From NCBI GenBank assembly GCA_036172245.1, contig JAYWIR010000023.1:620001-684000 (forward strand): a stretch of DNA of 64,000 nucleotides, read 5' to 3'. The DNA is from Raillietiella orientalis. Lineage: Eukaryota. Of the stretch, positions 18,801 to 21,800 are shown one piece after another; the stretch's first letter is position 1; the number at the start of each line of letters is the position of its first letter. Position numbers and translations under genes: made by a program. The notes under the pieces are model-generated. The model ran no database searches. It was not told the origin of the DNA and saw only the letters and a program-made list of their open reading frames with translations.

Positions 18801-21800
18801 TGTAAGTTACAACAGAGAAGGGGATATCATTTGATTATATCAGGTGATGCATGACATTTTGGACATGATGCCTGAGGGAATCAAACAGAATAAAGCTCGT
18901 ACAATCTTACAGCATTTAAGTGAAGCCTGGCGTTGCTGGAAAGCCAATATACCTTGGAAAGTAAGTGGTTGTATTAATTTATTAAGCTTTTTGTAATCTG
19001 CATGATGAGTTGTGCAGGGGTCACGAACTCAGCTGTTATGTTGGCTGGCCTCATGGAGTATCAATTTTAGAGCACTGTAATGCTCAATTGTTACTCCTTG
19101 CAGGGAAAGCATGCACTCACTGAATTCTAAACTAACAAGAAGTGTCTACAGTTCATGAAATCTGTATTTAATCGTGGTATTATTTTAGGTTCCAGGACTA
19201 CCAACTCCGATCGAAAATATGATTCTGCGATATGTCAAAATGAAAGCTGATTGGTGGACCAATACAGCCCATTATAACAGAGAAAGAATTCGTAGGGGTG
19301 CAACTGTGGATAAAACTGTGTGTAAGAAGAACCTTGGACGTCTCACCCGTTTGTATCTCAAAGCAGAACAAGAACGCCAACATAATTATCTCAAGGTGAG
19401 CTATGAAATAAATTAGAGAATGCTTGCATAAAAGGATTGATTTAGGATGGACCTTACATTAGTCCGGAAGAAGCTGTTGCTATTTACACCACAACAGTTC
19501 ACTGGCTTGAATCAAGACGCTTTGCACCAATCCCATTTCCTCCCCTTTCCTATAAACATGACACCAAATTGTTGATACTTGCGTTAGAGCGTCTCAAAGA
19601 AGCATATAGTGTAAAATCTCGGTTGAATCAGAGCCAAAGGGAAGAACTTGGTCTTATTGAACAGGCATATGATAATCCCCATGAAGCATTATCTCGCATT
19701 AAAAGACATCTGCTGACCCAAAGAGCATTTAAGGAGGTACGAAAGTTGTGTAGATTGATTGCCCTTGTTGAGTTTTTATTAGGTTGGAATAGAGTTTATG
19801 GACTTGTACAGTCACCTTATCCCAGTATATGATGTGGAACCATTAGAAAAAATTACAGATGCATATTTAGACCAGTATCTGTGGTATGAAGCTGATAAGC
19901 GTCGTTTGTTCCCTCCGTGGGTGAAACCTGCAGACACAGAACCGCCTCCCCTTCTAGTTTACAAATGGTGTCAAGGAATTAATAATCTTCAGGATATCTG
20001 GGACACTTCAGAAGGGGAATGTGTTGTTCTCCTTGAGTCGAAATTCGAGAAAATGTATGAAAAAATTGATCTCACACTCCTAAACAGACTGCTGCGCTTA
20101 ATTGTGGACCATAATATAGCAGATTATATGACAGCAAAGAATAATGTAGTCATCAATTATAAGGTGAGTTAGTACTTAGGATCAACAGTCAAGTAGCAGC
20201 TGTCTCCCTTAGGATATGAATCATACAAATTCATATGGAATTATTCGTGGGCTCCAGTTTGCATCGTTTATAGTTCAATATTATGGCTTGGTTTTGGATC
20301 TACTGGTGCTGGGCCTACAACGAGCTTCAGAAATGGCAGGACCCCCACAATTACCAAATGACTTTCTTACTTATCAAGATATAGCAACTGAATCAGCTCA
20401 TCCCATTCGATTGTTTTGTCGTTACATCGATCGTGTGCACCTCTTTTTTCGGTACAGATTTAGAATTTGAATGATTCAAAATTGCGGTACAGATTTACAG
20501 CTGAAGAAGCACGGGAGCTCATTCAGCGTTATTTGACAGAGCATCCAGACCCAAATAATGAGAACATAGTAGGTTACAATAATAAAAAGTGTTGGCCTCG
20601 TGATGCACGCATGAGGCTTATGAAGCATGATGTGAATCTGTGAGTATATAGAAGAAAAGTAGAAATAACAATCTTAATGTAGAGGTCGTGCTGTTTTCTG
20701 GGATATCAAGAATCGATTACCACGTTCTGTGACTACCATCCAATGGGAAAATAGTTTTGTTAGTGTGTATTCAAAAGACAACCCTAATCTGCTTTTCAAC
20801 ATGGGAGGTTTTGAGTGCCGTATCCTACCTAAAGTAATTGTGTTTTGTTTTATCTTATTCATTATACATTCATTATCTGAATAGTGCCGTATGACCCATG
20901 AAGAGTTCACCCACAAGGATGGAGTGTGGAACCTGCAAAACGAAGTTACCAAAGAAAGAACTGCCCAGTGCTTTCTTCGTGTTGATGATGAAAGCATGCA
21001 GCGTTTTCATAATCGTGTACGTCAAATTTTGATGGCTTCAGGTTCCACCACGTTCACAAAGGTTTGGTATTTAAAAGAATAGTTTCAAAATGCTATTGTG
21101 TTGTGCATAGATTGTCAACAAATGGAATACAGCACTGATTGGTTTAATGACGTACTTCCGTGAAGCTGTTGTGAACACACAAGAATTGCTGGACCTGCTC
21201 GTGAAATGCGAAAACAAAATTCAGACTCGTATCAAAATTGGTCTCAACTCAAAAATGCCTTCCCGTTTTCCACCTGTTGTGTTTTACACACCTAAAGAGC
21301 TTGGTGGCTTGGGCATGCTTTCCATGGGCCATGTGCTTATTCCCCAATCTGACTTACGCTGGTCTAAGCAAACAGATGTGGGGATCACACATTTCCGATC
21401 AGGAATGAGCCATGATGAAGATCAAGTAATTCCTAATCTTTATCGCTATATTCAGCCATGGGAAGCAGAGTTTATTGATTCTCAGCGTGTTTGGGCTGAG
21501 TATGCATTGAAGAGACAAGAAGCCAATGCACAAAATAGGCGACTGACATTGGAAGATTTAGAAGATAGTTGGGATCGAGGTATTCCACGTATCAACACCT
21601 TGTTCCAGAAGGACAGACATACTTTGGCCTATGACAAGGGATGGCGTGTTCGCACAGATTTCAAACAGTATCAAGTCTTAAAACAAAATCCTTTCTGGTG
21701 GACACACCAGCGCCATGATGGCAAACTTTGGAATCTCAATAATTACCGAACAGATATGATTCAAGCTTTAGGAGGAGTAGAAGGAATTCTTGAACATACT

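Follow-up and report, generated by a model that had tools for sequence, protein, structure and literature searches.

Intron 11 of the PRP8 gene (pre-mRNA-processing-splicing factor 8) in a 64,000-nucleotide (nt) stretch of Raillietiella orientalis DNA probably encodes a divergent SNORD94-type box C/D guide RNA for 2′-O-methylation of C62 (Cm62) in the U6 small nuclear RNA (snRNA). The stretch, which we call the window, covers positions 620,001 to 684,000 of the forward strand of contig JAYWIR010000023.1, and all coordinates below are counted from its first letter. As judged from its sequence features, the candidate RNA would be ~122–131 nt long (19002–19123). It shares the 5′ domain of SNORD94, but strict membership in that family is unproven because the match falls below the Rfam threshold and the element lacks a terminal stem. 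A review table (PMC7960923) names SNORD94, also known as U94, as the RNA that guides Cm62 formation in human U6, in agreement with the original prediction for this intron, and an excerpt of PMC6894857 reports that its knock-down lowered C62 methylation in cardiomyocytes.

Every sequence feature that the original prediction had named in this intron was found where it had been placed, and all of them lie on the plus strand. The C box, ATGATGA (19002–19008), agrees with the RUGAUGA consensus and aligns to the SNORD94 C box. The D box, CTGA (19120–19123), is the sole CTGA in the intron and corresponds to the CUGA consensus. The two boxes are 111 nt apart and together span 122 nt, which is uncommonly long for a C/D RNA. 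Downstream of the D box, 65 nt separate position 19124 from the 3′ splice site, the distance that had been predicted. Between the boxes lie, in order, a 5′ antisense (guide) element (19010–19022), a putative D′ box, ACGA (19023–19026), a conserved post-D′ element, CTCAGCTG (19028–19035), an imperfect internal hairpin of 56 nt that was identified by folding (19049–19104), a second TGCAGGG (19099–19105) and, immediately 5′ of the D box, a stretch that occupies the position of a second guide (19106–19119). A hairpin–H box–hairpin–ACA layout with CAB boxes, as in H/ACA RNAs, was not seen in the intron 11 element.

The feature that connects this element with U6 is the sequence TTGTGCAGGGGTCA (19010–19023), which starts one base past the C box and pairs with U6 57–70. 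The corresponding U6 stretch is quoted as 55-CAUGGCmCCmCmUGCGC in the accessible part of PMC13109388, and PMC6124571 assigns the contact between U6 and snord94 to CUGCGCAA. Together with the review table in PMC7960923, where human C60, C62 and C63 are listed as methylated, these sources confirm in print what the original prediction had given as established for the U6 sequence and its modification. The guide element proper comprises 13 bases opposed to U6 58–70, of which 11 form Watson–Crick pairs and two form G-U pairs. Counted from the D′ box outward, guide c at position 1 faces G58, u at position 2 faces G59 (G-U), g at positions 3 and 4 faces C60 and C61, g at position 5 faces the target C62, and g at position 6 faces C63; a at position 7 then faces U64, c at position 8 faces G65, g at position 9 faces C66, u at position 10 faces G67 (G-U), g at position 11 faces C68, and u at positions 12 and 13 faces A69 and A70. 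A possible 14th pair joins a19023 and U57. Box C/D guides pair over 10 bp or more through an antisense element that abuts the D or D′ box and sets the target at +5; here 13 bp are formed with the published U6, with C62 at +5. Counting five bases back from the putative D′ box at 19023–19026 leads to g19018, which the +5 rule places opposite C62. The proposal that ACGA serves as D′ and sets this register agrees with the ungapped alignment to SNORD94 that is described below.

C and D boxes alone would carry little of this argument, given that the window contains 29 RTGATGA sites on its two strands, 12 of them with a CTGA 45–140 nt downstream. The antisense element is of a different order of rarity. 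A pattern complementary to U6 57–70 with G-U pairs allowed (TTGYGYRGGGGYYR) has one match in the 64 kb, both strands considered, whereas 100 shuffles give an expectation of 0.02 matches, with any match at all in only 1 of the 100. The complementarity in intron 11 thus exceeds chance, since one match was found against 0.02 expected. This sole match sits one base past the C box and exactly fills the gap between the C box and D′.

Similarity to SNORD94 extends beyond the guide. In a targeted search of 18940–19210 (271 nt) against 4227 Rfam families, run with permissive filters and reporting expectation values (E) of up to 10, the best of three matches was SNORD94 (RF00613), with 19.2 bits and E 0.02; the other two matches of the intron region, AfaR and Hovlinc, both had E >1. 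The SNORD94 alignment runs without a gap through the C box, the guide and the D′ position and on into CUCAGCUG, with 26 of 33 positions identical. At the D′ position, the family sequence CGGA lies over ACGA, and the final eight positions of the alignment (19028–19035) are identical throughout. The quoted U6 stretch offers no pairing partner for CUCAGCUG. Since U6 pairing does not depend on these eight positions, their perfect match speaks for shared ancestry and not for convergence driven by a shared target.

Several observations weigh against assigning the element a guide function of this kind. The U6 letters used for the pairing are those of the published sequence rather than of this species' own U6. 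The SNORD94 score of 19.2 bits compares with a gathering cut-off of 60 bits and so lies below the threshold for Rfam membership, and an Rfam scan of the whole window at gathering thresholds returned no matches, and hence no U6 gene in the 64 kb. In a blind scan of 64 kb, the same match would have an E of ~5 by our own arithmetic, and it therefore counts only as the outcome of a targeted test. The 3′ two-thirds of the element do not contribute to the likeness: 19049–19135 searched alone gives no SNORD94 match at E up to 10. Of the four bases of the putative D′ box, only two agree with the CUGA consensus, and no convincing C′ box was seen by eye, the nearest candidate being ATGTTGG at 19038–19044. 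Stems that would bring the ends together are also missing. The 12-nt flanks of the boxes give +0.2 kcal/mol and stay unpaired, and an external stem formed by the full intron flanks reaches −12.1 kcal/mol; shuffles average −12.6, and 266 of 500 are equally good. Nor did an orthologue emerge from the collections searched. A pattern of C box, guide and CUCAGCUG had no match in metagenomes, and a like pattern had none in prokaryote-genome contigs and none in viral contigs. When the metagenome pattern was relaxed by dropping the C box, five matches appeared, which we rejected as chance because none has an upstream TGATGA and their context, at 45–65% GC, is not that of a snoRNA.

The SNORD94-like character of the intron, as originally proposed, is consequently upheld in part: SNORD94 is the top Rfam family, with the C box, guide, D′ position and CUCAGCUG all aligning, but the score remains far from the gathering threshold. 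One explanation for this mixture is that the element is a decayed, non-functional SNORD94-type relic, with a 5′ half that is still recognisable and no ability to assemble a stable small nucleolar ribonucleoprotein (snoRNP). The lack of terminal and external stems, a 3′ part that does not align, the degenerate D′ box, the absence of an identified C′ box and the 19.2-bit score would all be natural in a relic. Decay should, however, have reached the C and D boxes and the guide as well, and these retain perfect boxes and 13–14 pairs with no irregularity other than G-U wobbles; moreover, 228 nt have been kept in a gene where introns are mostly pared to 42–55 nt. We therefore regard a relic as unlikely. 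The degenerate D′ box bears also on the exact target, because it leaves the register to be set by alignment to the SNORD94 consensus. An RNA that truly binds the U6 stem-loop might act on a neighbouring C (C61, if D′ were CGAA at 19024–19027) or have no part in methylation and serve as a chaperone or decoy. The methylation of C60, C62 and C63 in human U6, with Cm63 lacking a listed guide in PMC7960923, gives such a role some room. The ungapped alignment nevertheless sets ACGA on the D′ position of the family, and C61 is absent from the list of modified sites in human U6 (PMC7960923), so we consider another role on U6 quite improbable.

That the resemblance is fortuitous, and that the intron is long for some other reason, appears very improbable. 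The most concrete version of this idea is that the 56-nt hairpin at 19049–19104 is a microRNA (miRNA) precursor. Pairs of C and D boxes are common in the window, as noted above; the hairpin is stable and gives weak matches to the miRNA families mir-507 (E 1.4) and mir-547 (E 6.7); and intron 8 of Drosophila Prp8 hosts mir-988, according to an excerpt of PMC4053861. Set against this, the U6 antisense element is expected only 0.02 times per window and lies precisely between the C box and D′, and the eight positions of CUCAGCUG would have to agree with SNORD94 by accident. The miRNA matches are not significant, mir-988 is not among the matches reported, and an internal hairpin is compatible with a C/D RNA. 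A SNORD94-type guide for Cm62 remains the reading that we favor.

If intron 11 does encode such a guide, the RNA would be transcribed within the PRP8 pre-mRNA and released by splicing, after which trimming would leave a C/D core in complex with fibrillarin and the other customary box C/D proteins. The 13-nt element at 19010–19022 would then pair with U6 58–70, a segment that makes up the 5′ strand of the internal stem-loop together with its loop, provided that the U6 of this species carries the published sequence, as we suppose. Fibrillarin would methylate the 2′-OH of U6 C62, which faces guide position 5 as counted from D′. By analogy, this ordinary mechanism of intron-derived C/D snoRNPs is likely, because known SNORD94 and U6 guides work in the same way. 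In human U6, Cm62 together with Cm63 promotes formation of m2G72 by THUMPD2, as reported in the available portion of PMC13109388.

Folding of the element region gives −45.6 kcal/mol (z −2.4), a value equaled by 4 of 200 shuffles. In the predicted fold, the hairpin at 19049–19104 remains when the boxes and the guide are barred from pairing. Without that constraint, the post-D′ element is joined to the D-box region by pairing of UCAG at 19029–19032 with CUGA at 19120–19123. The SNORD94 alignment, for its part, closes the terminal stem of the model on 19044–19048, an artefact that arises because the alignment is local. The second TGCAGGG falls largely within the 3′ base of the hairpin. The original prediction had offered this motif as a possible second site of pairing with U6, which is not supported: a gap of 14 nt separates it from the D box, so that it is out of register for guiding methylation, and no other D-type box stands in register with it. 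In light of the modelled fold, we read it as probably structural, a part of the hairpin base. The other suggestion, a CAGGG-type motif for LARP7 binding, found no counterpart in a literature search that did not take in the two original Mol Cell 2020 LARP7 papers. A second guide to U6 within 19106–19119 was also considered and rejected, as pairing by eye with the quoted U6 stretch amounts to 5 bp at most.

The host gene is PRP8. Its mapped coding part, identified by tblastn and Pfam, extends over 15985–24478 on the plus strand. A tblastn search with full-length PRP8 (P0018) placed residues 47–2347 over 16263–24478, and an N-terminal exon piece lies at 15985–16011. The exons match the Pfam domains PRO8NT, PROCN, U5_2-snRNA_bdg, U6-snRNA_bdg, PRP8_domainIV, JAB and PROCT, and a 597-amino-acid exon is 90–96% identical to PRP8 proteins from many animals. 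The nearest relative is a bee protein (0.90 identity) and, among named proteins, one from a mantis shrimp, a weak hint of arthropod origin. Intron 11 itself (18961–19188, GT..AG) interrupts the PROCN domain, with the exon on its 5′ side (18844–18960) covering profile positions 294–333 and the exon on its 3′ side (19189–19395) covering positions 334–402. Splice sites were modelled in 20 junction zones, 19 of which gave a model; one zone gave none, and the model for 19783–19825 is weak. Among these 19 introns, 16 measure 42–55 nt, and the exceptions are 158 nt (17314–17471), 122 nt (17578–17699) and, longest of all, the 228 nt of 18961–19188, so that the description of a long intron amid short neighbors is borne out. 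A further intron of ~250 nt lies upstream, between the exon piece at 15985–16011 and position 16263. Counting this additional intron makes the 228-nt intron the 11th, and the number originally given to it is right provided that the 5′ untranslated region has no intron.

Two other long introns belong to the same gene, apart from intron 1, which is roughly placed at ~16012–16262 and also exceeds the 42–55-nt norm. Intron 5 (17314–17471), the second longest of those modelled, folds as hairpin, hinge, hairpin and ACA tail, with the ACA at 17449–17451; its folding energy of −44.8 kcal/mol (z −4.1) was equaled by 1 of 200 shuffles. Its Rfam matches are weak (SNORA13, E 0.3; SNORA21, E 0.23; and, for the second hairpin, mir-9, E 0.2), and no clean ANANNA H box was seen in it. 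Intron 5 may be a counterpart of the H/ACA small Cajal body-specific RNA scaRNA:Prp8, which is found in the 4th Prp8 intron of Drosophila; alternatively, it may contain a miRNA-like hairpin. Intron 6 (17578–17699, 122 nt), also longer than the norm, has no structure above that of shuffles (z 0.25). Elsewhere in the window, positions 1–4000 have a GC content of 0.525, compared with 0.31–0.43 in the remainder, and contain several overlapping long open frames on both strands. For a 249-amino-acid open reading frame on the minus strand (9347–10093), no relatives were found.

We also considered how the element is distributed over PRP8 genes. The original prediction had suggested that the link between PRP8 and the guide might be ancient, and this is not supported. 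Within vertebrates the SNORD94 host already varies, being PTCD3 in human and, in zebrafish, rrm2, where the RNA occupies the second intron (PMC6023535), and the element is present in none of three other eukaryotic PRP8 loci, which do not bear on close relatives. One of these loci, L006, is interrupted at the same codon position by a 118-nt intron, in which C box, D box and U6 antisense are all missing; the other two, L007 and L008, lack an intron at this site, and an Rfam search of all three gave nothing relevant. The three loci are filed as bacterial metagenome-assembled genomes. They encode eukaryotic PRP8 with 87–97% identity to the exon in the window, and one of them sits on a 481-kb contig with spliceosomal introns; here, eukaryotic sequence seems to have been binned with prokaryotes. 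Sequencing runs were a further source of related DNA. There were 22, each sharing ≤0.05 of sampled words with the window, and the four that were aligned reach only the conserved PRP8 exons of other organisms. In one of these runs (X16), a DNA contig from another organism matches the PRP8 exon and diverges a few bases past 18960, leaving 30 loose letters, which fits an intron at the same place. Together with L006, this contig suggests that the intron position is common to distant eukaryotes though the content of the intron differs.

If the RNA is real, the SNORD94 family reaches well beyond the vertebrates, and its 5′ domain, consisting of guide, D′ box and CUCAGCUG, is its ancient core; our literature search found no SNORD94 or U94 outside vertebrates. 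It would also follow that Rfam annotation by threshold misses the gene, and a guide for the U6 stem-loop that is co-expressed with PRP8 would provide a tractable test of host-gene coupling in snRNA modification. A stronger proposal is that PRP8 is a dedicated host for guides to spliceosomal RNAs in this lineage, with an H/ACA-like RNA in intron 5 and the SNORD94-type guide in intron 11, so that PRP8 synthesis co-delivers a guide for the stem-loop that PRP8 later cradles. We think this doubtful. Were it true, maturation of the U6 active site would be tied to the supply of its protein scaffold, and SNORD94 would already have existed in the last ancestor that this invertebrate shares with the vertebrates. 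The intron 11 guide likely adds an unannotated member to a known RNA family, with PRP8 as a new host gene. It does not represent a new mechanism. Guides for snRNA modification inside splicing-factor genes have already been described, as an excerpt of PMC4053861 attests. PRP8 as host makes an appealing functional pairing rather than a new principle.

As the original prediction had noted, small RNAs are hosted by Drosophila Prp8, but those described in the accessible text of PMC4053861 are of other kinds. One, scaRNA:Prp8 (CR43600), is a box H/ACA scaRNA with CAB boxes in a conserved 4th intron and has predicted targets in U1, U5, U7 and U11; the other is mir-988, assigned to a conserved 8th intron in a supplement legend. 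Both share with the intron 11 element a host gene that is a splicing factor, and scaRNA:Prp8 likewise has spliceosomal snRNAs as its predicted targets. Neither of them, as described there, belongs to the C/D guides or has U6 C62 as a target. Closer in kind are SNORD67 (the Cm60 guide), SNORD7, SNORD8/9, SNORD10 and Bombyx Bm-18, which, like the intron 11 element, are box C/D RNAs for 2′-O-methylation of U6; none of them was matched in the Rfam search of intron 11. Bm-18 is an insect example, an intronic C/D RNA with a predicted U6 target that lies in an RpL5 intron, according to the part of PMC3089462 at hand. The U6-specific C/D guides of human cells, SNORD94 included, are bound by LARP7, as stated in an excerpt of PMC11863803.

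SNORD94 itself is the closest known RNA. The two differ in several respects: the 3′ two-thirds of the intron 11 element cannot be aligned, and it is without a terminal stem, whereas the human RNA has complementary ends, as indicated by the snord94 primers in PMC6124571. Within the guide, pairing extends further toward D′, as far as G58, and includes a G-U pair at G67. The host is PRP8 instead of PTCD3 or rrm2. In both RNAs, the C box is followed by an antisense element to the same U6 region, D′, putative in the intron 11 element, stands at an equal offset with C62 as the +5 nucleotide, and CUCAGCUG is kept after D′. The lengths are also similar at ~120–137 nt, with a C-to-D span of 122 nt here and 137 positions in the SNORD94 model, and both occupy an intronic site.

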